DNA from: Klebsiella phage vB_Kpn_004_Koku
Sequence record: PV625053.1
Direction: 5' to 3' (one strand)
DNA: 44,317 nucleotides
Part shown: positions 23,374 to 37,222 of the stretch, piece after piece
How the letters are laid out: the number at the start of each line of letters is the position of its first letter
Numbering within the stretch: position 1 is the stretch's first letter
Notes under the pieces: generated by a model
What the model was told of the DNA's origin: nothing
What the model saw: only the letters and a program-made list of their open reading frames with translations
Databases searched by the model: none
Translations under genes and position numbers: made by a program

Positions 23374-23529
23374 TAGTGTCTAAAAGTAGATAGGCTGTAC
23401 GGCAGAATACGCAGGAACTTATTGCTTCATATCGTAACGTGAAGAAATAATTTGCATCGTCTGCGTAGCAGTTAGTATCTTAGTGTAACAAAGGGCTGAC
23501 CTAGGTTGGCCCTTCATGAAGGAGGCAAC

Positions 23530-23685
23530 ATGATTTGGATTCACACGTATGGTGTAGGGCCGTTCAAGAAGAAGGTACTCAGGAAGATTCATGAGTCCGA
23601 GGAATCAGCCTTAGCCAGCCAGAAGGTACTTGGTGGGACTGTCCAGTGCTACATGAAGAAGCCACAAGGCTTTGACTTATTGTAA
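23530..23685 (+). CDS. small hypothetical protein (51 aa) at genome right end
   Basis: ATG 6 nt after GAAGGAGG; MIWIHTYGVGPFKKKVLRKIHESEESALASQKVLGGTVQCYMKKPQGFDLL; below ORF-track size cutoff. Confidence 0.45.
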   Translation: MIWIHTYGVGPFKKKVLRKIHESEESALASQKVLGGTVQCYMKKPQGFDLL

Positions 23686-23744
23686 CCAAAGGTGGTCACA
23701 AAGTAACCAAAGTCAAAATTTTGATATAGGCGTGTGTCAGCTCT

Positions 23745-23935
23745 CTCGCCCGTCGCCCGTCCGGATTGTCCCCATAGGGGTGCCTAGGGCATTTCTAGGG
23801 CCGGAGGGCGGGACTAGGGCGTTTCTTAGTGAGGGCCAAAGGGTTGCCGGAGGCTGGGCGGGAGGGCGCGATAGGGACACGCAGAGGACGCTTGACAGCG
23901 TGGGAGGGCGTGGGCTATCTGTTCCTTTTTGTGCC
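23745..23935. repeat. genome-terminus region: CCCCATAGGGG palindrome, CTAGGG and GGGAGGGCG repeats (putative terminal repeat / concatemer junction)
   Basis: CCCCATAGGGG parallels the CCCCCATAGGGGG in T7 terminal repeat; GGGAGGGCG occurs three times with a fourth near-copy; non-coding. Confidence 0.5.
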
Positions 23936-23937
23936 TA

Positions 23938-24110
23938 GCCTTGCTTAGTGTTACCTTATGCACTTCCTTATCGTGTACCTTATGCAAGTCTTAGTGACTA
24001 ACTTAGTGCATACCTTAGTAGCTACCTTAGTGATTACCTTAGTCACAACCTATCAATCCTTAGTGTTACCTTAGTGAATTGCATAGCTAAAGCTATAAGA
24101 TGCTATTAGG
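23938..24110. repeat. array of short CCTTAGTG / ACCTTAGT-type direct repeats
   Basis: about 9 tandemly spaced copies of (A)CCTTAGTG-like units, positional analog of T7 left-end CCTAAAG repeats between terminal repeat and first early promoter. Confidence 0.6.
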
Positions 24111-24201
24111 TCGCGGTCGGTAGACCGCTAAAAGATGTAATGAGTAGGAAGATGCAAGAGATGAACACCAGAAACCATCTTGTCTGTCCTAATGTTTGCC
24201 T

Positions 24202-24219
24202 TGTCTAACACGTTGGACA
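24202..24219. repeat. degenerate palindrome copy TGTCTAACACGTTGGACA
   Basis: one mismatch; 11 bp upstream of -35 of host promoter P1. Confidence 0.7.
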
Positions 24220-24230
24220 ACAATTAAGTG

Positions 24231-24259
24231 TTGACAGGTTATCTTGGTGTATGCATAAT
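24231..24259 (+). promoter_or_regulatory. early sigma70 promoter P1
   Basis: TTGACA-17 bp-CATAAT. Confidence 0.75.
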
Positions 24260-24348
24260 GCATCACGTAGGCGGTGCTGAGGCACCTAGTAGCCAGCTAG
24301 TAAGGCATACGAAGAGACTAGCGCCTACCTTAGTGAAGTAACTTAGTG

Positions 24349-24377
24349 TTGACAAGGTAGATAACCTGAGATACATT
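24349..24377 (+). promoter_or_regulatory. early sigma70 promoter P2
   Basis: TTGACA-17 bp-TACATT. Confidence 0.75.
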
Positions 24378-24393
24378 AAGAAGCAAGAAGTAC

Positions 24394-24410
24394 CGCTCTT
24401 TAACAATTTG
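24394..24410 (+). promoter_or_regulatory. rrn-type boxA element in P2 leader
   Basis: CCGCTCTTTAACAATTT: GCTCTTTAACAA identical to E. coli rrn boxA consensus, ~+12 from predicted start. Confidence 0.55.
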
Positions 24411-24462
24411 CTTAGTGTAACCTATGTAAGCCGTGGTTAATCTATCATTAATGAGGTATACC

Positions 24463-24621
24463 ATGCATAACTTAGATGATGCTTATGATGCTTACGTGGA
24501 GTCAGTCTGTGAATATGAGATTCCTATGAGTAAACGCCAGTTCCTTAAAATGATTGAGGAGTGGCAAGAGAGGCCAAATAAGGTATCACCTGAACTCAAG
24601 GAGGGCATAGAATGCAACTGA
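24463..24621 (+). CDS. early hypothetical protein (52 aa)
   Basis: ATG 24463 preceded by GAGGT at -5; first gene downstream of host promoter P2; stop overlaps next ATG. Confidence 0.55.
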   Translation: MHNLDDAYDAYVESVCEYEIPMSKRQFLKMIEEWQERPNKVSPELKEGIECN

Positions 24622-24785
24622 ATCTACGAGAAGCAAGCACTGTCTTTACTATGCTGTGCTACATGGCACAAAACGAGGCTATGACCGACGACGAACTAGC
24701 GTTATATCATCGCTTTCGTAAGGAAGGATGGGACGATCTAGTTAATAAAGATCGTGATATTCTTAAAGAAATGATTGAGGGTTAA
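24612..24785 (+). CDS. early hypothetical protein (57 aa)
   Basis: ATG overlaps upstream stop (ATGCAACTGA), AAGGAGGG SD 7 nt upstream; MQLNLREASTVFTMLCYMAQNEAMTDDELALYHRFRKEGWDDLVNKDRDILKEMIEG. Confidence 0.6.
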   Translation: MQLNLREASTVFTMLCYMAQNEAMTDDELALYHRFRKEGWDDLVNKDRDILKEMIEG

Positions 24786-24788
24786 CAA

Positions 24789-24992
24789 ATGTTTAAGTAC
24801 GAAGTATTTATCAGTGATAACCGCGAAGCCGCTGTGATTGCAGAGATGTTCAACGGTCACATTACGGCGTACAACGTAGGAGATGATGAGGAAGCCTTTG
24901 TTGTTACCTTCACTAGCAAATTATCGCATAAGAAGGTAGTAGATAAGGTGATGCCTTTCTCCTTCGAAGAAGTAATTTCCAACAAAATCTAA
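24789..24992 (+). CDS. early hypothetical protein (67 aa)
   Basis: ORF immediately after previous stop, GAGGG 7 nt upstream; ends just before host promoter P3. Confidence 0.55.
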   Translation: MFKYEVFISDNREAAVIAEMFNGHITAYNVGDDEEAFVVTFTSKLSHKKVVDKVMPFSFEEVISNKI

Positions 24993-25001
24993 AATTAGTT
25001 G

Positions 25002-25030
25002 TTGACAACCACGGCTTACAAGGTTACATT
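25002..25030 (+). promoter_or_regulatory. early sigma70 promoter P3 (upstream of ocr)
   Basis: TTGACA-17 bp-TACATT; same architecture as P2. Confidence 0.75.
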
Positions 25031-25048
25031 AAGCACCAACAAGGCAAC

Positions 25049-25066
25049 ACCGCTCTTTAACAATCT
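25049..25066 (+). promoter_or_regulatory. rrn-type boxA element in P3 leader
   Basis: ACCGCTCTTTAACAATCT; second copy, same spacing from promoter. Confidence 0.55.
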
Positions 25067-25159
25067 GGAATGCACTTAGTCGGATAGGTTAGATAAGCTA
25101 TCTTGGCACTAGCTAGGGTAGCTTAGTGTAACCTAACTAACTAAATGAGGATTAAAATT

Positions 25160-25504
25160 ATGTATAATATGACTTATTCCAATGTTTACAACCACGCTCG
25201 CAGCATGATTGAAGAGGCAATTCGTTATGACGATATCCGGGACACGGATAAGTTATATGATGCACTTCATGAGGCTTGTGATAATGCAGTTCCTCACTAT
25301 TACAATGATGTTTTCTCTGTAATGGCGAGCGACGGCATTGACCTTGAATTTGAAGATTCCGGTTTAATGCCTGAAACTAAGGATGTTATCCGCATACTGC
25401 AAGCTCGCATTTACGAACAACTCACGATCGACCTTTACGGTGTCGCTGAGGACTTGATGAACGACTATATCGCTGAGATGGAAGAAGAAGAGGACGAGGA
25501 ATAA
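25160..25504 (+). CDS. ocr: Ocr, DNA-mimic anti-restriction protein (T7 gp0.3 homolog)
   Basis: ..[96 protein letters not shown] aligns along its length with T7 Ocr as recalled (identical stretches such as [50 protein letters not shown]). Confidence 0.9.
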
Positions 25505-25620
25505 TGAACGGCAAGCAATACAACTTCCTGTTTTCTGACGGTGTAACCCTGAAATGCTCCTTGCACTTCGCTATGATGCGCGAGGAGACGCTTGGAACCT
25601 CCTACCGCTTAATTATGTGA
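25504..25620 (+). CDS. small ORF (38 aa), possible gene 0.4-like, uncertain
   Basis: ATG overlaps ocr stop (TAATG); [38 protein letters not shown]; no independent SD. Confidence 0.3.
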   Translation: MNGKQYNFLFSDGVTLKCSLHFAMMREETLGTSYRLIM

Positions 25621-25631
25621 CACTATAAGAG
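25611..25631 (+). promoter_or_regulatory. weak SP6-type promoter variant
   Basis: AATTATGTGACACTATAAGAG (3 mismatches incl. around +1). Confidence 0.4.
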
Positions 25632-25702
25632 GTTTAACAGGGTGCTCTTGCGAGAGTGCCCGATTAAACCAACTTATATTCATTAACTCAAAAGGTGACA
25701 TT

Positions 25703-26611
25703 ATGACTACCGAAAACATCCTCCTGTCTGTCCGCGAAGCTGCAACCGCTGAAATCAAAGCACATTTGGAGACAATCGGCGCTTCTTACCTCAAAGTTGG
25801 CTCCCTCCTGAATGAGTTACGCGGTGATTTTGAGAACCAGCGCGAGTTTCTCGCCTACGTAGAAGAAGAATTCAGCATTAAGAAAGCACAATGCTACAAC
25901 CTTATGAACGTAGCGCGTTGCTTTGACGGTGACGAGCGCTTTAAAGGTGTGGCGATGCGCGTCATGCTGTCCCTGATTCCGTTTGCAGATGAGGCCGGGA
26001 TTATGGATAAGGCCGCAGAGCTTGCCGCAGAGGGCAAATTAGATACGAAGGCCGTTAATGCACTTACGGGCAAGCCTGAGAAGCCAGCGGCTAAACCTAT
26101 GCAATCACAAGGCGGGCCAGAGAAAACCGCTGAGAATGCCGCAGAGAGCGCAGAGCAGGCACCGCAGAGCGTACCCGAAGAATCTAATATAGAATGGGGC
26201 GCCGATGAAAACACGGATTCGGCACCGTGGGACGACGAACCAGCGCAGCGCGACGACTCACAGAAAGCGCCAGAGCGTAAAGCGGAGCCGCTGGATAACG
26301 CTGCAAACGCTGAGAGCGCTGCTATGGCTGGCCTGTTGGAGCAGATTAAGAGTCTTACCGAACAACTCAAAGCCGCAAACGACCGTATCGCAGAGCTAAC
26401 CAGCACCCGCGAGAACAAGAAAGCAGCCGCTCCTATGCTTCCACAATTTAAATCCTCCTGCTTCTATGCTCGCTTAGGTTTAAGCGCTGAGGAAGCCACC
26501 AAGAAAACAGCAGTTAACAAGGCCAAACGTGAACTTGTTAAACTTGGTTATGGTGAGGGCCATGAAGCGTGGACGCTTATTGCCGAGGCAGTAGCGGAAT
26601 TAACTAAGTGA
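25703..26611 (+). CDS. early hypothetical protein with acidic low-complexity centre
   Basis: 302 aa; structured N-terminal ~100 aa, then Ala/Glu/Pro-rich disordered segment, conserved-looking C-terminal ~60 aa; last gene before RNAP. Confidence 0.7.
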   Translation: MTTENILLSVREAATAEIKAHLETIGASYLKVGSLLNELRGDFENQREFLAYVEEEFSIKKAQCYNLMNVARCFDGDERFKGVAMRVMLSLIPFADEAGIMDKAAELAAEGKLDTKAVNALTGKPEKPAAKPMQSQGGPEKTAENAAESAEQAPQSVPEESNIEWGADENTDSAPWDDEPAQRDDSQKAPERKAEPLDNAANAESAAMAGLLEQIKSLTEQLKAANDRIAELTSTRENKKAAAPMLPQFKSSCFYARLGLSAEEATKKTAVNKAKRELVKLGYGEGHEAWTLIAEAVAELTK

Positions 26612-26686
26612 TTAGTTGACTTTGAGAGCGTCATTTTATAAGATGGCGCTCAATTAAGTTTTCTAGCACCAAATGGAGTAATCAAG

Positions 26687-29308
26687 ATGCAAGATCTAAT
26701 GAACATGCAGCTTCAACTTGAAGACGAGATGTTTAACGGTGGTATCCGCCGCTTTGAAGCTGACCAGCAGCGCCAGATTGCAAGCGGTAATGAATCCGAT
26801 ACTGCATGGAATCGCCGCCTGCTGTCTGAATTGATTGCACCTATGGCCGAGGGTATCCAAGCGTATAAAGAAGAGTACGAAGGTAAGAAAGGCCGCGCCC
26901 CGCGTGCTCTTGCTTTCCTGCAATGCGTAGAAAACGAGGTTGCAGCCTACATCACCATGAAAGTGGTTATGGATATGCTGAACACCGATGTAACCCTTCA
27001 AGCTATTTCTATGGCGGTGGCTGACCGCATTGAAGACCAAGTCCGCTTTAGCAAGCTGGAAGGTCACGCCGCTAAATACTTTGAGAAAGTCAAAGCAAGC
27101 CTGAAAGCAAGCCGCACTAAATCTTATCGCCACGCGCATAACGTATGCGTAGTTGCTGAGAAATCAGTGGCGGCTAAAGATGGCGAGTTCGACCGCTGGG
27201 AGGCATGGCCTAAAGACACCCTCCTGCAAATCGGGACTACCTTGCTTGAAATCTTGGAGAATAGCGTATTCTTTAATGGTGAGCCTGTATTCATGCGTGC
27301 AATGCGTGCGGTAGCTGGTAAAACTGTCTACTACCTGCAAACGTCTGAAACCGTGGGCGAGTGGATCGCAGCATTCAAAGACCACGTAGCGCAACTGTCC
27401 CCGGCTTATGCTCCTTGCGTAGTACCGCCGCGTCCTTGGGTATCCCCGTTCAATGGCGGCTTCCACACTGAGAAGGTGGCTAGTCGTGTTCGTCTGGTCA
27501 AAGGCGACCGCGAACATGTTCGCAAGCTGACCAAAAAGCAGATGCCTAAAGTTTACAAGGCTGTTAACGCCCTGCAAAACACTCAATGGCAAATTAACAA
27601 GGAAGTATTAGCGGTAGTGGAGGAAGTGATCCGCCTTGACCTTGGTTATGGTAAGATTCCACACTTCAAGCCCATCATTGACAAGGAGAACAAGCCAGCG
27701 AACCCGGTTCCGGTTGAGTTCCAGCACCTTCGCGGGCGTGAGTTAAAGGAAATGCTCACCGCTGACCAGTGGCAAGCCTTCATTAACTGGAAGGGCGAAT
27801 GTGCGAAGCTGTACACCGCAGAGACTAAGCGCGGCTCCAAGTCCGCCGCCGTGGTTCGCATGGTTGGACAGGCTCGCAAATACAGCGCTTTTGATGCGAT
27901 TTACTTCGTATATGCACTGGATAGCCGTTCCCGCGTTTATGCGCAGTCTAGCACGCTCTCACCGCAGTCTAACGACTTAGGCAAGGCATTGCTCCGCTTC
28001 ACCGAAGGGCAGCCGCTTGACACCGCTGAGGCGCTTAAATGGTTCCTCATCTCCGGCGCTAACCTGTGGGGTTGGGATAAGAAAACCTTTGATGTACGTC
28101 AAGCTAACGTGTGGGATGCAGAGTTTCAAGATATGTGCCGGGATATCGCCGCCGACCCGCTCACCTTCACACAGTGGGCTAAAGCGGACGAGCCTTACGA
28201 GTTCCTCGCATGGTGCTTTGAATATGCCCGCTATCTGGATGCTCTGGAAGATGGCACCCGCGATGAGTTCCGCACGCACTTACCAGTACACCAAGACGGC
28301 TCATGCTCTGGCATCCAGCACTATAGCGCTATGCTGAAAGATGAGCGCGGCGCTATCGCTGTTAACCTGAAACCGGGAGACGCTCCGCAAGATATTTACG
28401 GCGCGGTTGCGCAGGTGGTTATTGCGAAGAATGCCCTGTACATGGACGCCGACGAAGGGCTGACCTTCGAATCTGGTAGCCTGAAACTGTCCGGCGCTGA
28501 CCTCCGCGCGATGGCGAATGCCTGGGATATGGTAGGCATCACCCGGTCACTGACCAAGAAGCCTGTTATGACCCTGCCGTATGGCTCCACTCGCCTAACC
28601 TGCCGCGAATCTGTGATCGACTACATCGTTGATCTGGAAGAGAAAGAGGCGCAGAAAGCAGCAGTAGAAGGGCGGGCATCTAACAAGGTACACCCGTTCG
28701 AAGAAGGGCAGGCACTGGAACCAGCGATGGCATACAACTACATGACTGCTTTGATTTGGCCGTCAATCTCTGAGGTTGTGAAGGCTCCGATTGTTGCGAT
28801 GAAGATGATTCGCCAGCTTGCACGCTTCGCAGCTAAACGCAACGAAGGGCTGGAATATACGCTGCCGACTGGCTTCATCCTGAAACAGAAAATCATGGCA
28901 ACCGAAATGCTCCGCGTGCGTACCTGTCTGATGGGTGATATCAAGATGAGCCTGCAAGTGGAAACTGACATTGTAGATGAAACTGCAATGATGGGCGCAG
29001 CAGCACCGAATTTTGTACACGGTCACGATGCGAGCCACCTGATTCTCACAGTCTGCGATCTGGTAGACAAGGGTATCAAATCTATAGCTGTGATTCACGA
29101 CTCCTTCGGGACTCATGCAGGCCGTACCTTAGACCTCCGCAACTCCCTGAAAGGGCAGATGGTGGAAATGTATGAACACACTAACGCACTGGAGAAACTA
29201 CTGGAAGAACACGAAGAACGCTGGAAGGTTGACACTGGCATCAAAGTACCAGAGCAAGGCACCTTCGACGTCCGGGAAATCTTAGAGTCTGACTATTGCT
29301 TCGCTTAA
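26687..29308 (+). CDS. single-subunit DNA-directed RNA polymerase (SP6 RNAP-like)
   Basis: 873 aa (SP6 RNAP is 874 aa as I recall); long stretches match SP6 RNAP as I recall it ([28 protein letters not shown]..; ..[20 protein letters not shown]..; ..[10 protein letters not shown]..); the genome uses SP6-consensus promoters. Confidence 0.95.
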
Positions 29309-29315
29309 TATTAAT

Positions 29316-29348
29316 AGGGCCAGCCTTCGGGTTGGCCTTTTCTTTTGC
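29316..29348 (+). terminator. terminator after RNAP gene
   Basis: GGCCAGCC-TTCG-GGTTGGCC (one G-U) followed by TTTTCTTTTG. Confidence 0.75.
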
Positions 29349-29374
29349 CTATCACCTGTTACATTTCATTAACA

Positions 29375-29392
29375 AGTCCAACGTGTTGGACA
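29375..29392. repeat. palindrome copy AGTCCAACGTGTTGGACA
   Basis: 8 bp upstream of promoter 29401. Confidence 0.9.
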
Positions 29393-29400
29393 CGATGCAG

Positions 29401-29421
29401 ATTTAGGAGACACTATAGGAC
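29401..29421 (+). promoter_or_regulatory. SP6-type promoter variant (origin region, left)
   Basis: ATTTAGGAGACACTATAGGAC. Confidence 0.7.
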
Positions 29422-29537
29422 TACCCGTCGGAGACGGAAAGTAATAGGTAGTTAAAGGTAATAAAGGGAAGATAGGTAATATAGGTAGTCCTAGGTTACA
29501 CTTCCTTTATTCTCCTTCCTTATTACCTCAGGGAGTC
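29422..29537 (+). repeat. AT-rich iteron-like element C between two promoters (candidate primary origin)
   Basis: AAAGGTAATAAAGGG, ATAGGTAATATAGGTAG, imperfect inverted repeat ..GGTAATAAAGGGAAG../..CTTCCTTTATT..CCTTATTACC. Confidence 0.65.
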
Positions 29538-29538
29538 C

Positions 29539-29556
29539 TGTCCAACGTGTTGGACA
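29539..29556. repeat. palindrome copy TGTCCAACGTGTTGGACA
   Basis: 4 bp upstream of promoter 29561. Confidence 0.9.
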
Positions 29557-29560
29557 ACCT

Positions 29561-29581
29561 ATTTAGGTGACACTATTGAAC
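29561..29581 (+). promoter_or_regulatory. SP6-type promoter variant (origin region, right; gene 1.1)
   Basis: ATTTAGGTGACACTATTGAAC. Confidence 0.7.
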
Positions 29582-29609
29582 AAGACTAACTTACTTTGGA
29601 GATTCAATC

Positions 29610-29735
29610 ATGCGTAACTTCGAGAAAATGACCCGTAAATCTACCCGCTTCGATGAGTTCGAAGGGAAGAAAGGTAGCAAGCGTAATAAGATTGTACGCG
29701 ACCGTGCATCTAAACGCGCTGCATGGGAGATCTAA
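29610..29735 (+). CDS. gp1.1-like small basic protein (41 aa)
   Basis: MRNFEKMTRKSTRFDEFEGKKGSKRNKIVRDRASKRAAWEI vs T7 gp1.1 MRNFEKMTKRSNRNARDFEATKGRKLNKTKRDRSHKRSWEGQ; GGAG SD; same position after the origin-like region. Confidence 0.8.
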   Translation: MRNFEKMTRKSTRFDEFEGKKGSKRNKIVRDRASKRAAWEI

Positions 29736-29738
29736 GTT

Positions 29739-31727
29739 ATGGCGATCATCAATAACATCCCTTGCCCGATGTGCCAGAAGAACGGGCACGATAAATCCGG
29801 CAACCATCTAATGATCTTTGAGGATGGTGCTGGTTACTGTAACCGTAGTCACTTCCACGACAACGGACGACCTTACTACCACAAGCCCGAGGGCGGCATC
29901 GAGATCACAGAGCTACCTATCAATGGTTCAATCAAGTACACTCCTGCACAATTCCGTGACTTGGAGAAAGAAGGGAAGATAGCAGACCCTAAACTACGTG
30001 CCATCGCCCTTGGTGGTATGCGAATGAAAGACCGCTGGGAGGTCATGAATGACGAAGAGAAGGCAGAGCAAGAAGCCGAGTGGCAACTTGATGTTGAGTG
30101 GTTCCTTGAACTTAAAAGGAAGAACCTTGTATCACGACACATTCGAGGCGACATTTGTGCGCTGTATGACGTCCGAGTCGGTCATGATGGTGAAGGGAAG
30201 GTTAACAGGCATTACTACCCTCGCTTCGAGAATGGCAAACTTGTAGGCGCGAAGTGCCGGACACTCCCTAAAGACTTCAAGTTCGGGCATCTTGGTAAGC
30301 TATTCGGCAATCAGGATATGTTCGGTATGAACACCATGTCCAACGTGTTGGACAAGGGCCGTCGCAAAGACGTGCTGTTAATTGTCGGCGGCGAACTTGA
30401 TGCGATGGCTGCGCAGCAGATGCTGATGGATGCAGCTACTGGCGACTGGAAGGGCAAGCCTTATCACGTCTGGTCTGTGAACAAGGGCGAGTCTTGCCTT
30501 GAAGAGATCGTCCAGAACCGGGAGCACATCTCGCAGTTCAAGAAAATTATATGGGCCTTCGACGGTGACGAGGTAGGGCGCAAGCAGAACCAGCAAGCGG
30601 CCCGCCTGTTCCCCGGCAAGTCCTATATCCTTGAGTACCCTGCCGGGTGCAAGGATGCGAACAAGGCGCTGATGGCTGGCAAGTCGAAGGAGTTCGTCGA
30701 TGCATGGTTCAACGCCAAGTCCAGCGAGGAAGTCTTCGGTAGCCAGATTAAGTCCGTTGCGTCGATGCGTGACGAACTCAAGAAGGCCCGACCAGAGGAG
30801 GGACTGTCATGGCCTTGGCCTAAGCTGAACAAGGTTACGCTGGGTATTCGTAAGCACCAGCTTATCATCGTCGGCGCAGGCTCCGGTGTGGGTAAGACCG
30901 AGTTCCTACGCGAAGTGGTTAAGCACCTCATCGAAGAGCATGGGGAATCCGTTGGTATTATCTCGACGGAAGACCCGACCAAGAAGGTGGCGCGTGCATT
31001 CATCGGGAAGTGGATCGACAAGCGCATTGAGTTGCCGCCGACAAATGACCCGACCGAAGATGGCTATCGTGAGGTACTTGACTACACAGATGAGGAAGCG
31101 GCAGCAGCTATCGACTACGTAGCAGATACAGGTAAGTTCTTTGTAGCTGATCTCGAAGGTGACTACTCAATGGAGAAGATTGAGCAGACCTGCCTAGAGT
31201 TCGAAGCTATGGGGATTCAGAACATCTTTATTGATAACTTAACGGGGATTAAATTAGATGAGAGAGCATATGGTGGTAAGGTTGGAGCGCTTGATGAGTG
31301 CGTCAAAAGGATTGGAACTATCAAAGACCGACATCCTGTTACGATCTTCCTTGTCAGTCACCTTACTCGCCCTTCGGGACAACGTACCCAACACGAAGAA
31401 GGTGGTGAAGTTATCCTTTCTGACTTCCGAGGCTCAGGAGCTATCGGATTCTGGGCTTCTTACGCCTTGGGGATTGAGCGTAACACACGAGCTGAATCGC
31501 TTGATGAAAGAACTACCACGTACATCTCATGCGTCAAAGACCGTGACCAAGGGATTTTCACGGGGACTAAGGTCATGCTTAAAGGCGACCTTGCAACCGG
31601 TAGATTGAAGGAACCTCAAGCACGAACCAAGAGCTTTGACACAGGTGTACCTAAGCAGCAGGAAGTACCTGATGATTTAGGTGACACTATAGAACAAGGT
31701 AACTTCGAGGAAGAGCAGGAGTTCTAG
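29739..31727 (+). CDS. DNA primase/helicase (gp4-like)
   Basis: 662 aa; N-terminal Cys4 zinc ribbon CPMCQKNGHD..CNRSH, Walker A GAGSGVGKTEF, acidic C-terminal tail ..NFEEEQEF ending in Phe as in T7 gp4. Confidence 0.9.
   Translation: MAIINNIPCPMCQKNGHDKSGNHLMIFEDGAGYCNRSHFHDNGRPYYHKPEGGIEITELPINGSIKYTPAQFRDLEKEGKIADPKLRAIALGGMRMKDRWEVMNDEEKAEQEAEWQLDVEWFLELKRKNLVSRHIRGDICALYDVRVGHDGEGKVNRHYYPRFENGKLVGAKCRTLPKDFKFGHLGKLFGNQDMFGMNTMSNVLDKGRRKDVLLIVGGELDAMAAQQMLMDAATGDWKGKPYHVWSVNKGESCLEEIVQNREHISQFKKIIWAFDGDEVGRKQNQQAARLFPGKSYILEYPAGCKDANKALMAGKSKEFVDAWFNAKSSEEVFGSQIKSVASMRDELKKARPEEGLSWPWPKLNKVTLGIRKHQLIIVGAGSGVGKTEFLREVVKHLIEEHGESVGIISTEDPTKKVARAFIGKWIDKRIELPPTNDPTEDGYREVLDYTDEEAAAAIDYVADTGKFFVADLEGDYSMEKIEQTCLEFEAMGIQNIFIDNLTGIKLDERAYGGKVGALDECVKRIGTIKDRHPVTIFLVSHLTRPSGQRTQHEEGGEVILSDFRGSGAIGFWASYALGIERNTRAESLDERTTTYISCVKDRDQGIFTGTKVMLKGDLATGRLKEPQARTKSFDTGVPKQQEVPDDLGDTIEQGNFEEEQEF
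30337..30354. repeat. palindrome copy TGTCCAACGTGTTGGACA inside primase-helicase CDS
   Basis: encodes MSNVLDK in frame. Confidence 0.9.
31674..31694 (+). promoter_or_regulatory. SP6-type promoter inside 3' end of primase-helicase gene
   Basis: ATTTAGGTGACACTATAGAAC; encodes DLGDTIEQ in the helicase. Confidence 0.85.
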
Positions 31728-31743
31728 TGTTCTTATCAGGGCT

Positions 31744-31761
31744 TGTCCAACATGTTGGACA
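31744..31761. repeat. perfect palindrome TGTCCAACATGTTGGACA
   Basis: flanked by GGGCT/AGGCTC extending the stem to 12 bp; after primase-helicase gene. Confidence 0.9.
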
Positions 31762-31799
31762 GGCTCTTATTAAGCACATTAACTAACAGGAGAAATGAA

Positions 31800-32465
31800 A
31801 TGATTAAGTTGGTATTAAATGTTGGCGACCGTGTACGTAACATCAACAAGCAGTCCAGTCGCTATCAAACCAAAGGCGTAGTTGTGGCAGTAGGCGACAG
31901 CATATACGTAGTAAAGTATCGCAACGGTGCTGATCAATCTTATATCAAGAAGCTGGCACATAACTATCTGGAGAAGATAGTGGAGGCTGAAAGCAAGTGC
32001 AAGTGTGTGCATGATGAACTATGTGAGCATTGCACTCGCCAAGCGCAGAAAGCCATCACCTTCTTCGCACGTTACGGTGCAGGCACCAAGTCGATTGCAG
32101 AGCATATGGCACAGAGCCGCAAGGTGCTGAAACGGGAGCGCCGCAATGTGATCACTGGCATGACCCAATCGGATATGCACCGCCAGCATGGTGCAGAAGG
32201 TGTCGTCATGTTCAACACTCGTGCAACCGGGCGCAGCACAGGCCAAGCCTTCCGCATCTTGGGTGAAGCCATGTGCAATCCGGGTGTCGCCATTCGAATC
32301 CAAGACGTAGACCATGCGATCTCGGAAGGCAAAGGCAACCGCTGGCAGCTTAACAAACACTTCGAGCACATCTTACGTGACACTATAGGAGATATGAAAG
32401 GCTTCCACTTTGAGCACGGACATATCACATTTAACCCTATCGTTACGGAGGAAACTTATGTCTAA
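31800..32465 (+). CDS. hypothetical protein (221 aa)
   Basis: ATG 31800 is 7 nt after AGGAG (ORF-track extension to 31743 lacks SD and runs through the palindrome); Cys-rich segment CKCVHDELCEHC. Confidence 0.6.
   Translation: MIKLVLNVGDRVRNINKQSSRYQTKGVVVAVGDSIYVVKYRNGADQSYIKKLAHNYLEKIVEAESKCKCVHDELCEHCTRQAQKAITFFARYGAGTKSIAEHMAQSRKVLKRERRNVITGMTQSDMHRQHGAEGVVMFNTRATGRSTGQAFRILGEAMCNPGVAIRIQDVDHAISEGKGNRWQLNKHFEHILRDTIGDMKGFHFEHGHITFNPIVTEETYV
32371..32391 (+). promoter_or_regulatory. SP6-type promoter variant inside hypothetical gene
   Basis: TCTTACGTGACACTATAGGAG. Confidence 0.55.
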
Positions 32466-32673
32466 GAAACCTAGCCTCAAGTTCCTTGATGGGAACGAGT
32501 ACCTGCAACAACGTGTAACCAATCAGGCATTCCTGTTCGCACAGCTTACTATGGCAGAAGCCAAGAAGAATAGTCTTACCCGCGATCAGGTTATCAAAGA
32601 CGCTACATGGGAGCCCCACAAGGGAACCTACATGGGGTGCAAGGTTACAGTGGAGCGCAAGAAAGTCAGTTAA
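32458..32673 (+). CDS. hypothetical protein (71 aa)
   Basis: ATG 32458 follows GGAGG; downstream of an internal phage-promoter variant at 32371. Confidence 0.55.
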   Translation: MSKKPSLKFLDGNEYLQQRVTNQAFLFAQLTMAEAKKNSLTRDQVIKDATWEPHKGTYMGCKVTVERKKVS

Positions 32674-32685
32674 TAAGTCATGGGT

Positions 32686-32703
32686 TGTCCAACATGTTGG
32701 ACA
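32686..32703. repeat. perfect palindrome TGTCCAACATGTTGGACA
   Basis: GGGTTGTCCAACATGTTGGACAGCC, 25-mer nearly identical to copy at 9716. Confidence 0.9.
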
Positions 32704-32734
32704 GCCTATCATCATATTAATTGGAGGTAACTCA

Positions 32735-35281
32735 ATGAAAGATATTGATTGGATTAAAGAAGCCCAAGGCCGTATCCTTGTGATGGATGCGGAAGCTAAA
32801 GGTCTACTTGATGCCATCCGATACGGACACCGCGAGGACGTGCATATCATTTGCTGCATGGACTTGCTGACCACCGAAGAGTTCCTGTTCTTCGACCCGT
32901 ATGAGATGCGCGACCCGGAAGCGCGGGAGCGACTCAAGGAGTGGGAAGGGTTTCAGGACGGAGATCTTGTGGATGGCGTGAACTTCCTCAAGCACTGCGA
33001 GGCTATCATCTCACAGAACTTCCTAGGATATGACGGCTTGCTCTTTGAGAAGGCATTCCCGTCTGTGTGGCGTGGCTTTAACTACACAGAGAAGCGCGGG
33101 AAAGGCCGTCTGCGGGCCGATCTCTGCCCGGTAAGGGTTATGGATACCCTCGTTATGTCACGCCTCCTGAACCCGGATAGGCGGCTTCCTCCGCAGGCTT
33201 ACGCTAAAGGTATGGGTAACGTGGCCCCTCACTCAATCGAGGCGCACGGCATCCGCATCGGGCGCTATAAGCCAGAGAACGAAGACTGGTCTAAGCTGAC
33301 AGACCATATGGTTCACCGTGTCCGCGAGGACGTGGCGATTGGTCGTGACCTATTCCTGTGGCTGCATAACGGCGAATGGAAGGAGCACAAGGCGCGTGGT
33401 GTCAACCCTCGCACTGGCCTTGGCATCGAAACGGCATTCCACATGGAGTCTATCGTTGCGCTGGAAATGACCCGGCAGGCAGAGCGTGGCTTCCGACTGG
33501 ATATCGACAAGGCACTAGCCCGCTGCCAAGAACTCGACGAGAAGATCGACGAGACAGTAGCAGCATTCCGCCCGCACATGCCTATGCGTATCAAGTCAAA
33601 GCCGTTCAAGCCACAAGAGAAGGAGGAACAAATCGATGCAGCAAACAGCTACGCGGCGTTACATTCGTTGGGTACGAGGCTCTCAGAAGACGCCTTCTTA
33701 CATGTGGAACGCAGGGGTGATAGGAAGACTGTATGGGCCGTCACCACTAAGTCTGGAGATTGGTCTGCTACTGTCAAGAAAGATTTTCCTCACATTAGAG
33801 GAAATATTAATGACACGCCAAGCCTCAAGCACATTGGCCCTTACTCGCCAGTCACCTTTGAAGAGATCCCACTAGGGAACCGTGACACGGTGAAGCAGGT
33901 ACTCTATGACTTCGGGTGGCGAGGTGTAGAGTTCAACGATACAGAGCAGGCATACATCGACGAGAACGGTGTGCCGCCTAAACCTTGGAGTGGTAAGATC
34001 AATGAGAAGTCGATTGCTGTTTGGAAGGAAAGAGCCGCACGTGAAGGTAAAGCAGTCCCCGATTGGTGCTTGGGTATCGCTGCATGGTACATACTCGTAT
34101 CCCGTCGCGGTCAGATCCTCAATCGTGGTGACGTTGAAGCCTTCGATCAGAAAGGAGCGTGGCCCTCGCAGGCTGGTGTACGAAAGTGTCGCGGCCTTAT
34201 ACCTGTAGCCTTCAACAAAGAGCTTGGCATCAATGCACAAACGTACTACGAAACCTATGGGTGCTGGCCTACGTCTGATAAGGACGATGGTGAGTGGCGT
34301 GTTCCTGCCGTTGCTATCAGTATTGGAACTTCTACTTTCCGTATGCGGCATCGTAATGTTGTTAATATCCCCGCCCGTGGCTTATACCCTCTTCGTGATT
34401 TATTCATTGCAGGAAAAGGTAAGCTAATCCTTGGCTGCGACGGCGCAGGTCTGGAGTTGCGTGTATTATCGCACTTCATGAACGACCCTGAATACCAAGA
34501 GATCGTGTTGCACGGTGACATTCACACCCATAACCAGCTTAAAGCTGGCCTGCCGAAGCGCGACATGGCGAAGACTTTCATCTACGCCTTCCTGTATGGC
34601 TCCGGTATTGCCAACCTAGCGGCAGTTTGTGGCGTCACGGAGGAGGAGATGAAGGAAGTGGTGGCTCGTTTTGAGATTGAGCTACCATCACTGGCTCGAC
34701 TTCGTGAGAATGTTATCGCTGCCGGGAATAAGTTTGGCTACCTTCAAGCGCCGGATGGTCATTGGGGCCGCATCCGTATGGCTAACGGTGAACTCAAAGA
34801 GCACACCATGCTGAACGTGTTGCTCCAAATGACAGGATCACTGTGTATGAAATACGCACTGGTGAAAGCATTTGCTGTCATGCGCAGAGAGGGAGTAGCG
34901 CTGGATGATATGGGAAATCCTTGTGGTGTGGCTAACGTCCACGATGAAATCCAGATGGAGGTGCCAGAAGATGAGGTCTTGTACCTTGACTATGAGTTAC
35001 CTTTCACCTTGGAAGGCTTCGAAAATGAGAAGGCAGCTATCAAAGCTGTGTTTGATCCAGAGGAGAAACGTGTACATGTCGATTCAGAAGGCCGGATGTG
35101 GTCTGCTGCCAACCTCGTTAGCGTTGATCACGATGCTGGTGTGTTGCGTTGCCAGCGTAAATATCACCGTGCTGGTCATATTATCGCTGATGCAATGACT
35201 TGGGCTGGCAAATATCTTAACATGCGCTGCCCTATGGCTGGCGAATATAAGATCGGTGCAAGCTGGAAAGAGACTCACTAA
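32735..35281 (+). CDS. DNA polymerase, family A (T7 gp5-like)
   Basis: 848 aa; motif A ..DGAGLELRVL.., motif B ..RDMAKTFIYAFLYG.., motif C ..VHDEIQ.. as in T7 DNAP. Confidence 0.9.
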   Translation: MKDIDWIKEAQGRILVMDAEAKGLLDAIRYGHREDVHIICCMDLLTTEEFLFFDPYEMRDPEARERLKEWEGFQDGDLVDGVNFLKHCEAIISQNFLGYDGLLFEKAFPSVWRGFNYTEKRGKGRLRADLCPVRVMDTLVMSRLLNPDRRLPPQAYAKGMGNVAPHSIEAHGIRIGRYKPENEDWSKLTDHMVHRVREDVAIGRDLFLWLHNGEWKEHKARGVNPRTGLGIETAFHMESIVALEMTRQAERGFRLDIDKALARCQELDEKIDETVAAFRPHMPMRIKSKPFKPQEKEEQIDAANSYAALHSLGTRLSEDAFLHVERRGDRKTVWAVTTKSGDWSATVKKDFPHIRGNINDTPSLKHIGPYSPVTFEEIPLGNRDTVKQVLYDFGWRGVEFNDTEQAYIDENGVPPKPWSGKINEKSIAVWKERAAREGKAVPDWCLGIAAWYILVSRRGQILNRGDVEAFDQKGAWPSQAGVRKCRGLIPVAFNKELGINAQTYYETYGCWPTSDKDDGEWRVPAVAISIGTSTFRMRHRNVVNIPARGLYPLRDLFIAGKGKLILGCDGAGLELRVLSHFMNDPEYQEIVLHGDIHTHNQLKAGLPKRDMAKTFIYAFLYGSGIANLAAVCGVTEEEMKEVVARFEIELPSLARLRENVIAAGNKFGYLQAPDGHWGRIRMANGELKEHTMLNVLLQMTGSLCMKYALVKAFAVMRREGVALDDMGNPCGVANVHDEIQMEVPEDEVLYLDYELPFTLEGFENEKAAIKAVFDPEEKRVHVDSEGRMWSAANLVSVDHDAGVLRCQRKYHRAGHIIADAMTWAGKYLNMRCPMAGEYKIGASWKETH

Positions 35282-36986: not shown

Positions 36987-37205
36987 ATGAAAGTTGAAGT
37001 TGTAACTCTGCACTACAAACCGGGTGTGACGACTCTGGCAGGCACTAGCTTTATGTCTTTTTCAGAAGGCGATACATATCCAGATCTGCACTACATCGTG
37101 CGCGAAGGCCAGCACGTTGTGAATTACACCAACCCGGAGACTGGCGCGCGCCACGGCGTATCCGTCCCGGTATCTGACATACGTCAGGTCAACACTGTCC
37201 TGTAA
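36987..37205 (+). CDS. hypothetical protein (72 aa)
   Basis: AGGAGG SD; ends at the palindrome copy at 37205. Confidence 0.55.
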   Translation: MKVEVVTLHYKPGVTTLAGTSFMSFSEGDTYPDLHYIVREGQHVVNYTNPETGARHGVSVPVSDIRQVNTVL

Positions 37206-37222
37206 GTCCAACACGTTGGACA
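37205..37222. repeat. palindrome copy AGTCCAACACGTTGGACA
   Basis: between gene stop and promoter 37237. Confidence 0.9.

Follow-up and report, generated by a model that had tools for sequence, protein, structure and literature searches.

In bacterial ribosomal RNA (rrn) operons, reviews describe a complex that holds boxA at the RNA exit and 'delivers' the leader strand to the far-off sequence complementary to it, so that RNase III can cleave, and the rrn leader–trailer helix is essential for 30S formation. BoxA also shields the long untranslated RNAs of suhB and of CRISPR arrays from Rho (for suhB, Baniulyte et al. 2017); the same study gives the functional consensus GYTCTTTAANA. In phage T7, according to the passage of PMC3709561 that cites Savalia 2010, mutations in a boxA anti-termination element make Gp2 dispensable, and as far as that passage goes, this bypass implies boxA-antiterminated host transcription in T7. 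We compared with these systems the beginning of the host-transcribed early operon (24200–25200) of Klebsiella phage vB_Kpn_004_Koku (PV625053.1), whose entire 44.3-kb sequence is called the window here. The window is a circularly permuted phage genome of the SP6/K1-5 group (Autographiviridae, Molineuxvirinae), and its nearest named relative is Klebsiella phage vB_Kpl_K44PH129C1, with approximately 95% identity across the region. Two perfect copies of the rrn boxA lie in this early leader. Most probably, they are true boxA elements and orthologous to the one in the T7 early leader.

BoxA copy 1 (boxA1) is found at 24395–24406 and boxA copy 2 (boxA2) at 25052–25063, both on the + strand and both exact copies of the 12-mer GCTCTTTAACAA. 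Each matches GCUCUUUAACAA at 12/12 positions and reads in the same direction as the early transcripts, and the 12-mer is the same as that of the E. coli rrnB leader boxA. BoxA1, a predicted NusB/NusE site, is followed by TTT, as in the rrnB leader, and boxA2 together with its flanks (25051–25068) reads CGCTCTTTAACAATCTGG. The 12-mer occurs exactly twice in the window, compared with 0.01 copies expected from shuffled sequences, and two or more copies appeared in 0/100 shuffles. These copies are also the sole matches in the window to the gamma-proteobacterial consensus given above. When up to two mismatches were allowed, the count (4 versus 3.75 expected) fell to chance level, and therefore only the exact copies count. 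A chance origin of the pair was ruled out by the expectation for exact 12-mers, and a recent duplication of promoter plus leader was ruled out because P2 and P3, the promoters that precede the two copies, share just the −35, the −10 and boxA and have different spacers. In predicted centroid folds of a 782-nt and a 129-nt RNA, the two copies are fully or almost fully single-stranded. An Rfam search of 23400–27000 returned zero families, even at E ≤ 1.

The promoters P2 (24349–24377, + strand) and P3 (25002–25030, + strand) both have the form TTGACA-17-TACATT, match the sigma-70 consensus at 10/12 positions and are the sole occurrences of this pattern in the window, with 0.02 expected from shuffles. 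P1 (TTGACA-17-CATAAT, 24231–24259, + strand) matches at 11/12 positions, the best score in 23400–33000, and these three predicted promoters are by far the top sigma-70 matches in that interval. A preliminary description of this locus had proposed that P2 and P3 share this form, that each is followed at about +12 to +15 by an rrn boxA and that this arrangement lies upstream of the phage RNA polymerase (RNAP) gene. We confirmed all three points: the G of boxA lies 18 nt from the last −10 base of P2 and 22 nt from that of P3, which places it at about +11 and about +15 if the predicted start is taken as approximately 7 nt past the −10, and both copies are 5′ of the ocr-like gene and of the RNAP gene (26687–29308). 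The P2 and P3 copies have a 16-nt stretch, ACCGCTCTTTAACAAT, in common. The statement that P1 lacks boxA holds for its immediate leader but not for its transcripts, which cross boxA1 approximately 130 nt past their start. P2 is an insertion relative to K1-5/SE29-type relatives, in which the P1 leader continues straight into boxA.

Comparison with other phages revealed that the element is widespread. T7 812–829 is identical to window 25051–25068 at 18/18 nt, and this T7 copy lies 63 nt past the A3 start, just 5′ of the R0.3 hairpin and gene 0.3. The preliminary description had held that the T7 A1–A3 leaders lack boxA and that boxA was, as far as its author knew, undescribed in the T7 group; the first of these claims is contradicted by the T7 sequence and the second by PMC3709561, which in the passage citing Savalia 2010 names the T7 boxA anti-termination element. 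That description was thus right in kind, as an rrn-type boxA with Nus recruitment to early host transcription, and wrong on T7 and on novelty. Single exact copies in the sense orientation were found in the early leaders of T3 (position 781), K1F (669), K11 (767), KP32 (659) and Pseudomonas phage gh-1 (728), and the early leader of Era103 has a single copy with one mismatch. SP6, SE29, UAB_Phi78/pSL2, K1-5, K1E, AAPEc6, CC1, Raoultella P3a and relatives from IMG/VR have two to four early-leader copies each, and an exact or near-exact copy was present in 17/17 SP6/K1-5-like loci surveyed. A search of related early regions for the motif, which the preliminary description had suggested, found boxA in nearly all T7- and SP6-like leaders surveyed. 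Among phages of these two types that infect enterobacteria or Pseudomonas, early-leader boxA is thus nearly universal.

In a set of 41 distinct contexts taken from 20 phages, the box hardly varies and the upstream 15 nt carry just 0.02–0.6 bits per position; contexts were admitted at one mismatch or fewer, which makes the invariance of the box partly circular but not the divergence of the flank. A short tail, AAT-N-TGG, is conserved after the box, and the extended phage consensus across the group is GCTCTTTAACAATNTGG. BoxA is kept whether a promoter is 11 nt off, 65 nt off or absent, and it is always in the sense orientation in the phages compared. The close promoter spacing of +12 to +15 is not a conserved trait: in SP6, K1-5, T7 and T3 the distance is 55–65 nt, or there is no promoter nearby. 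In K1E (L132), a fourth boxA (2238–2250) before the ocr hairpin has a one-base insertion, GCTCTTTTAACAA, and may be an impaired copy. We also noticed small conserved hairpins 12–25 nt 5′ of some boxA copies, in K1-5 (L131, ~1225–1240 and ~1425–1445) and in SP6 (L003, 889–906), with examples such as AGACG-GCGA-CGTCT and GGCTGGC-ACTA-GTCAGCC and with loop and stem sequences that differ among phages. In position they recall the boxB hairpin of rrn operons; no such hairpin accompanies the copies in the window.

An IMG/VR scan for CGCTCTTTAACAAT yielded at least 120 loci and was the source of the additional SP6-like contigs L007, L008 and L112; among the matches listed, most, though unclassified, appeared unrelated to T7/SP6-like early regions, save for a few SP6-like contigs. 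A locus search of IMG/VR based on the RNAP gave 12 loci that are 85–98% identical and hence of limited diversity. BoxA annotation was absent from 20/20 GenBank/RefSeq reference records examined, including those of T3 and gh-1, in which promoters and RNase III sites are annotated. Annotators thus keep missing the early-leader boxA, which is probably why it looked new. In the Creative Commons-licensed literature, we found no paper that pairs boxA with SP6, K1-5, Autographiviridae or phiYeO3-12.

BoxA1 adjoins one arm of a predicted long-range RNA helix, helix A. The 5′ (leader) arm (24409–24438, + strand) starts 2 nt past boxA1 and was recognized from inverted repeats I1 and I2, the minimum free energy fold and covariation. 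The 3′ (trailer) arm (25007–25035, + strand) ends 16 nt before boxA2, about at the predicted P3 start, and coincides with the P3 spacer and −10. Helix A has 29 bp and one bulge, its arms are 568 nt apart, and it encloses exactly a cassette of three open reading frames (ORFs; 24463–24992, 530 nt). When the complete 782-nt RNA is folded, its minimum-energy structure (z = −10) still contains this helix. Among 15 distinct sequences and 30 pairs, 98.2% of the alignment cells are paired and six pairs have changed on both sides; 0/500 shuffles were as good, and sliding the 3′ partner reduced pairing to 25–38%. For helix B (8 sequences, 19 pairs), 98.0% of cells are paired and four pairs have changed on both sides; shuffles as good numbered 0/500 for percentage paired and for covariation score and 101/500 for pairs changed on both sides, and pairing with the 3′ partner slid was 24–43%. 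The non-Watson–Crick cells comprise 38 G·U and 7 A·C, an excess that points to pairing in the + strand RNA and not to a DNA palindrome. We considered and rejected the idea that the leader arm, read as its reverse complement, is a leftward promoter; the −35 would be poor, the promoter scan did not list it, and the G·U bias favours + strand RNA.

SP6 has the same helix A (940–969/1491–1520, 97% complementary) and, surrounding gene 0.2, another helix whose sequence differs (660–689/905–934); in both helices, each arm adjoins a boxA. In all SP6-like genomes examined, adjacent boxA copies flank duplexes of −36 to −54 kcal/mol, compared with −15 to −21 kcal/mol for non-adjacent combinations. In every module of every one of these phages, boxA is followed within 2–4 nt by a leader arm, and the next boxA comes after the trailer arm. 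The window has the most frequent type of helix, in which the trailer arm is at the same time a predicted sigma-70 promoter. One relative, IMGVR_UViG_3300045988_011354 (L138), whose RNAP is 98% identical to that of the window, has a third boxA and an extra upstream gene module (1379–2000). The helix of this module, AATGTAATGTACCTAGTGTATGCCGCT/AGCGGCATACATAGGTACATTACAT, is different in sequence and fully complementary, and here too the trailer arm shares sequence with a promoter, TTGACA-N18-TACATT; it appears, therefore, that gain and loss affect whole modules. Within the window, GCTTAGTGTAACCT occurs twice, at 24410–24423 and 25121–25134, and each copy is complementary to the P3 −10 region (25021–25034). 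This gives the trailer arm of helix A an alternative partner, located 86 nt further downstream.

Between boxA2 and the ocr-like gene is a predicted local hairpin of approximately 69 nt (25076–25144, + strand; −37.3 kcal/mol, z = −4.1). Each SP6-like genome has the same succession of last boxA, large local hairpin (with a different apex), CTAACTAACTAA, Shine–Dalgarno sequence and ocr. RNAalifold showed a conserved lower stem with one compensatory pair and weak covariation, and the apical parts do not align. In T3, R0.3 is annotated 29 nt past boxA. From its position and fold energy, we propose the hairpin at 25076–25144 as a candidate RNase III site and the positional equivalent of T7/T3 R0.3.

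Taking these observations together, we think it probable that the boxA copies bind NusB/NusE on the nascent early RNA and make host RNAP processive and Rho-resistant through the early operon of approximately 5 kb. Host RNAP would start at P1, P2 or P3 and transcribe GCUCUUUAACAA, and a dimer of NusB and NusE (S10) would bind the boxA RNA. NusA, NusG and SuhB would then join to form an rrn-type modified elongation complex, tethered to the boxA RNA, that would be fast, would resist pausing and Rho, and would cross the structured untranslated leaders and the rest of the operon, including the ocr-like gene and the RNAP gene, up to a terminator at ~29316–29349. Two copies would be useful in that transcripts initiated at P3 would be without boxA1. 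The P1/P2 transcript would probably lose boxA1 once helix A forms and RNase III cuts, and the complex would be loaded anew at boxA2, 16 nt past the trailer arm, which is the role proposed for the spacer boxA of rrn operons. For this phage, binding of Nus factors, resistance to Rho, cleavage by RNase III and reloading are inferred; homology with T7 and rrn predicts that nascent boxA RNA binds NusB–NusE.

Several points weigh against this proposal. We identified no Rho-dependent terminator in the interval from the promoters to the RNAP gene, and translation covers most of the operon; a need for antitermination is therefore assumed. To our knowledge, rrn-type complexes are not recognized as efficient suppressors of intrinsic terminators. 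BoxA was not found in the first 4.5–6 kb of KP34 (Klebsiella) or VP4 (Vibrio), both Autographiviridae, and boxA is therefore dispensable for this lifestyle. The function that we propose for boxA in this and other SP6-like phages is taken from homology, and the T7 boxA genetics reach us through the citing paper PMC3709561. The long retention of a perfect rrn boxA in phages that have their own RNA polymerase is an argument that transcription by the host enzyme, although brief, limits the rate enough to make the fastest and most processive transcription mode of the cell worth hijacking. Molineux and colleagues reportedly found that, in T7, the leading segment of the genome is also drawn into the cell by host transcription; we speculate that a faster, boxA-modified polymerase might bring about quicker DNA entry.

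We considered whether boxA might instead be mainly an RNA chaperone or processing aid, by which the Nus complex would hold boxA and, with it, the leader arm at the RNAP exit and deliver this arm to the trailer arm, transcribed approximately 570 nt later. The long-range helix would then form, RNase III would excise the enclosed three-gene mRNA, and this mRNA would be stabilized, as proposed for 16S rRNA. Such a role is compatible with antitermination and does not exclude it; as the principal function of boxA we regard it as rather unlikely. The strict adjacency of boxA and helix arms in all SP6-like modules examined speaks for it, as do the covariation of helices A and B (98.2% and 98.0% of cells paired) and the ratio of 38 G·U to 7 A·C, which places the pairing in + strand RNA. 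rrnB has the same layout, with boxA and then the leader arm of a leader–trailer duplex of −57.9 kcal/mol, and both the delivery model and the link to RNase III have been described for rrn. However, T7, T3, K1F, K11 and gh-1 keep boxA with local hairpins only, which indicates that long-range helices are not required, and cleavage of the helices by RNase III is a prediction. The trailer arm also doubles as the promoter core, which explains part of its conservation, and recombination at the DNA level could likewise keep inverted repeats similar.

It is very improbable, in our judgement, that boxA is a translational or autoregulatory repressor element like that of suhB, with the Nus complex hiding a Shine–Dalgarno sequence. 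Baniulyte et al. 2017 described boxA-dependent repression of suhB and predicted boxA less than 50 nt from many start codons, and boxA1 is 57 nt 5′ of the first ORF start at 24463. BoxA2, however, is approximately 97 nt from the ocr start with the 69-nt hairpin in between, distances from boxA to start codons vary widely among phages, and strong expression is needed at once from ocr and similar early genes; to the extent that PMC3709561 relates them, the T7 genetics favour antitermination. Least likely of all, and hardly credible to us, is that the motif has no Nus role and is a DNA-level or promoter-proximal element (part of the initial transcribed sequence or a site for another protein) or a relic of chance or duplication. 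The window copies do lie near nearly identical promoters, and their 16-nt identity could suggest a duplicated promoter module. Yet P2 and P3 conserve just their −35, −10 and boxA, with differing spacers, the orthologues in SP6, K1-5 and T7 lie at a distance of 55–65 nt from a promoter or are without a promoter in the vicinity, all copies are in sense orientation, and a 12/12 match to the rrn boxA is expected by chance only 0.01 times. Nus-dependent antitermination is the explanation that we prefer.

The arrangement of the helices suggests a broader, more tentative idea, which we hold to be possible although we would not call it probable. SP6/K1-5-like (Molineuxvirinae) early operons, that of the present phage among them, may be mimics of rRNA operons, in which gene cassettes lie within leader–trailer helices, with a perfect rrn boxA 2–4 nt before each leader arm, a fresh boxA past each trailer arm and two to four modules per genome. 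The Nus/SuhB complex would act as antiterminator and as leader-arm chaperone for excision by RNase III, and would be reloaded after each cut. In this parsimonious reading, RNase III would excise and stabilize each cassette, and at the boxA that follows the polymerase would acquire the complex again. Such reloading would also account for the presence of a separate boxA on transcripts from P3, whose start lies just beyond the trailer arm. We found no description or annotation of the rrn-like layout in the literature searched, which did not extend to the primary SP6 genome papers. As the passage of PMC3709561 indicates, early-leader boxA was already known and is genetically supported in T7; the rrn-like modular layout of the SP6 group is the sole part that may be undescribed. 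The multi-boxA leader–trailer design of SP6-like phages offers a small, non-ribosomal model for the rrn 'delivery' and 'reloading' ideas, which are hard to test on essential rRNA operons, and is a tractable alternative to them.

The cassette within helix A holds three small ORFs on the + strand (24463–24621, 24612–24785 and 24789–24992), taken from the ORF list and with equivalents annotated in OY978837; the second matches phrog_9275 and the third phrog_6403. The first gene past boxA2 is an ocr-like anti-restriction gene, the equivalent of gene 0.3 (25160–25504, + strand; phrog_2568, E = 3 × 10−48). A 302-aa gene lies between it and the last gene of the operon, which encodes the single-subunit phage RNA polymerase (26687–29308, + strand; phrog_414, E = 1 × 10−287) and is annotated as RNA polymerase in OY978837. 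Directly 3′ of this gene is a strong intrinsic terminator (29316–29349, + strand) with a 10-bp stem, six G–C pairs and TTCTTTT, which is the probable early terminator TE. Strong SP6-type phage promoters start after this terminator, the first of them at about 29400 and 29560. One degenerate SP6-type promoter, TAATTATGTGACACTATAAGAGG, was noticed within the host-transcribed region at 25610–25632, 5′ of the 302-aa and RNAP genes, and could provide positive feedback on RNAP expression. Save for this copy, SP6-type promoters occur only past the terminator, and the RNAP gene therefore depends on host RNAP.

A number of other features were noticed in the window. Just 5′ of the RNAP gene, a promoter-like sequence, TTGACT-17-TAAGAT, at 26616–26651 overlaps an 11-bp hairpin, an arrangement that recalls T7 and T3, in which gene 1 is preceded by the 'C' promoter and the RNase III site R1. 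An 18-bp palindrome, TGTCCAAC(A/G)(C/T)GTTGGACA, is present in at least nine copies (9718, 24200–24216, 29373–29392, 29537–29556, 30335–30354, 31742–31761, 32684–32703, 37203–37222 and 41925) and also in SP6 (L003, ~487–505). One copy lies approximately 10 nt 5′ of the P1 −35 and several directly adjoin SP6-type phage promoters; the palindrome could be an RNA hairpin or a protein operator. By eye, we noticed a perfect 10-nt complementarity between the P1 and P2 spacers (24235–24244/24359–24368; CAGGTTATCT/AGATAACCTG), which would be present in RNA only if transcription read in from 5′ of P1 and which may be a coincidence. The presumed left genome end (23934–24090) contains many short CTTAGTG/ACCTTAGTG repeats.

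Returning to the described systems, the window resembles suhB 5′ untranslated regions and CRISPR leaders, in Salmonella and other bacteria, in having a consensus boxA near the transcript 5′ end; in those cellular transcripts, the element recruits Nus factors and keeps Rho from terminating poorly translated RNA. Those elements differ in being single and chromosomal and in having no long-range processing helices, and the net effect at suhB is repression of translation. The likeness to lambda nut sites is one of proposed function: lambda employs a boxA RNA together with host Nus factors so that host RNAP becomes processive in the early operons, and the window copies would do likewise. Lambda boxA (CGCUCUUA) departs from the rrn consensus and needs N. 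In the window, there is no boxB hairpin between the predicted start sites and either boxA, as a lambda-type nut site would have, and a PHROG scan of six early ORFs (which covered neither the ORF at 25504–25620 nor that at ~25640–25700) found no antiterminator families. We know of no reason to expect an N-like gene in this phage family, although none was searched for. The window copies, being perfect rrn-type boxA elements, should act without a phage protein.

With T7 the window shares the succession of last strong host promoter, boxA, large hairpin and ocr, in an operon that ends in the phage RNA polymerase gene region; P3, boxA2, the hairpin at 25076–25144 and ocr stand in an order that is matched in T7, T3 and gh-1. 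The T7 group differs in copy number and spacing, as T7, T3, K1F, K11, KP32 and gh-1 each have one boxA at least 55–65 nt past A3, compared with two copies approximately 11–15 nt past predicted starts in the window. BoxA1 of the window adjoins a long-range helix, and the T7 group is without such a helix.

The comparison with the E. coli rrn operons was made from sequence and predicted folds. The phage cargo is a 530-nt three-gene mRNA and not rRNA, the trailer arm doubles as a sigma-70 promoter, and the window has neither a boxB hairpin nor a recognizable boxC. The likeness extends to the tails of the boxA copies. That of copy 1, AATTT, is the tail of the rrnB leader boxA, and that of copy 2, TCTGGA (25064–25069), is close to the tail of the boxA in the rrnB 16S–23S spacer, TCTGGAT (L149, 2335–2341), which is also resembled by TCTGG in T7 (L001, 825–829) and TCTGGAT in T3, K1F and SP6 copy 3. 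In rrnB, the leader arm directly follows the leader boxA and has the sequence after 16S as its partner, and the second boxA, GCTCTTTAAAAATCTGGAT, lies in the spacer past the trailer arm. The order in E. coli rrn, namely boxA, leader arm of a long-range helix of approximately 30 bp, cargo, trailer arm and second boxA, is identical to that in the window.

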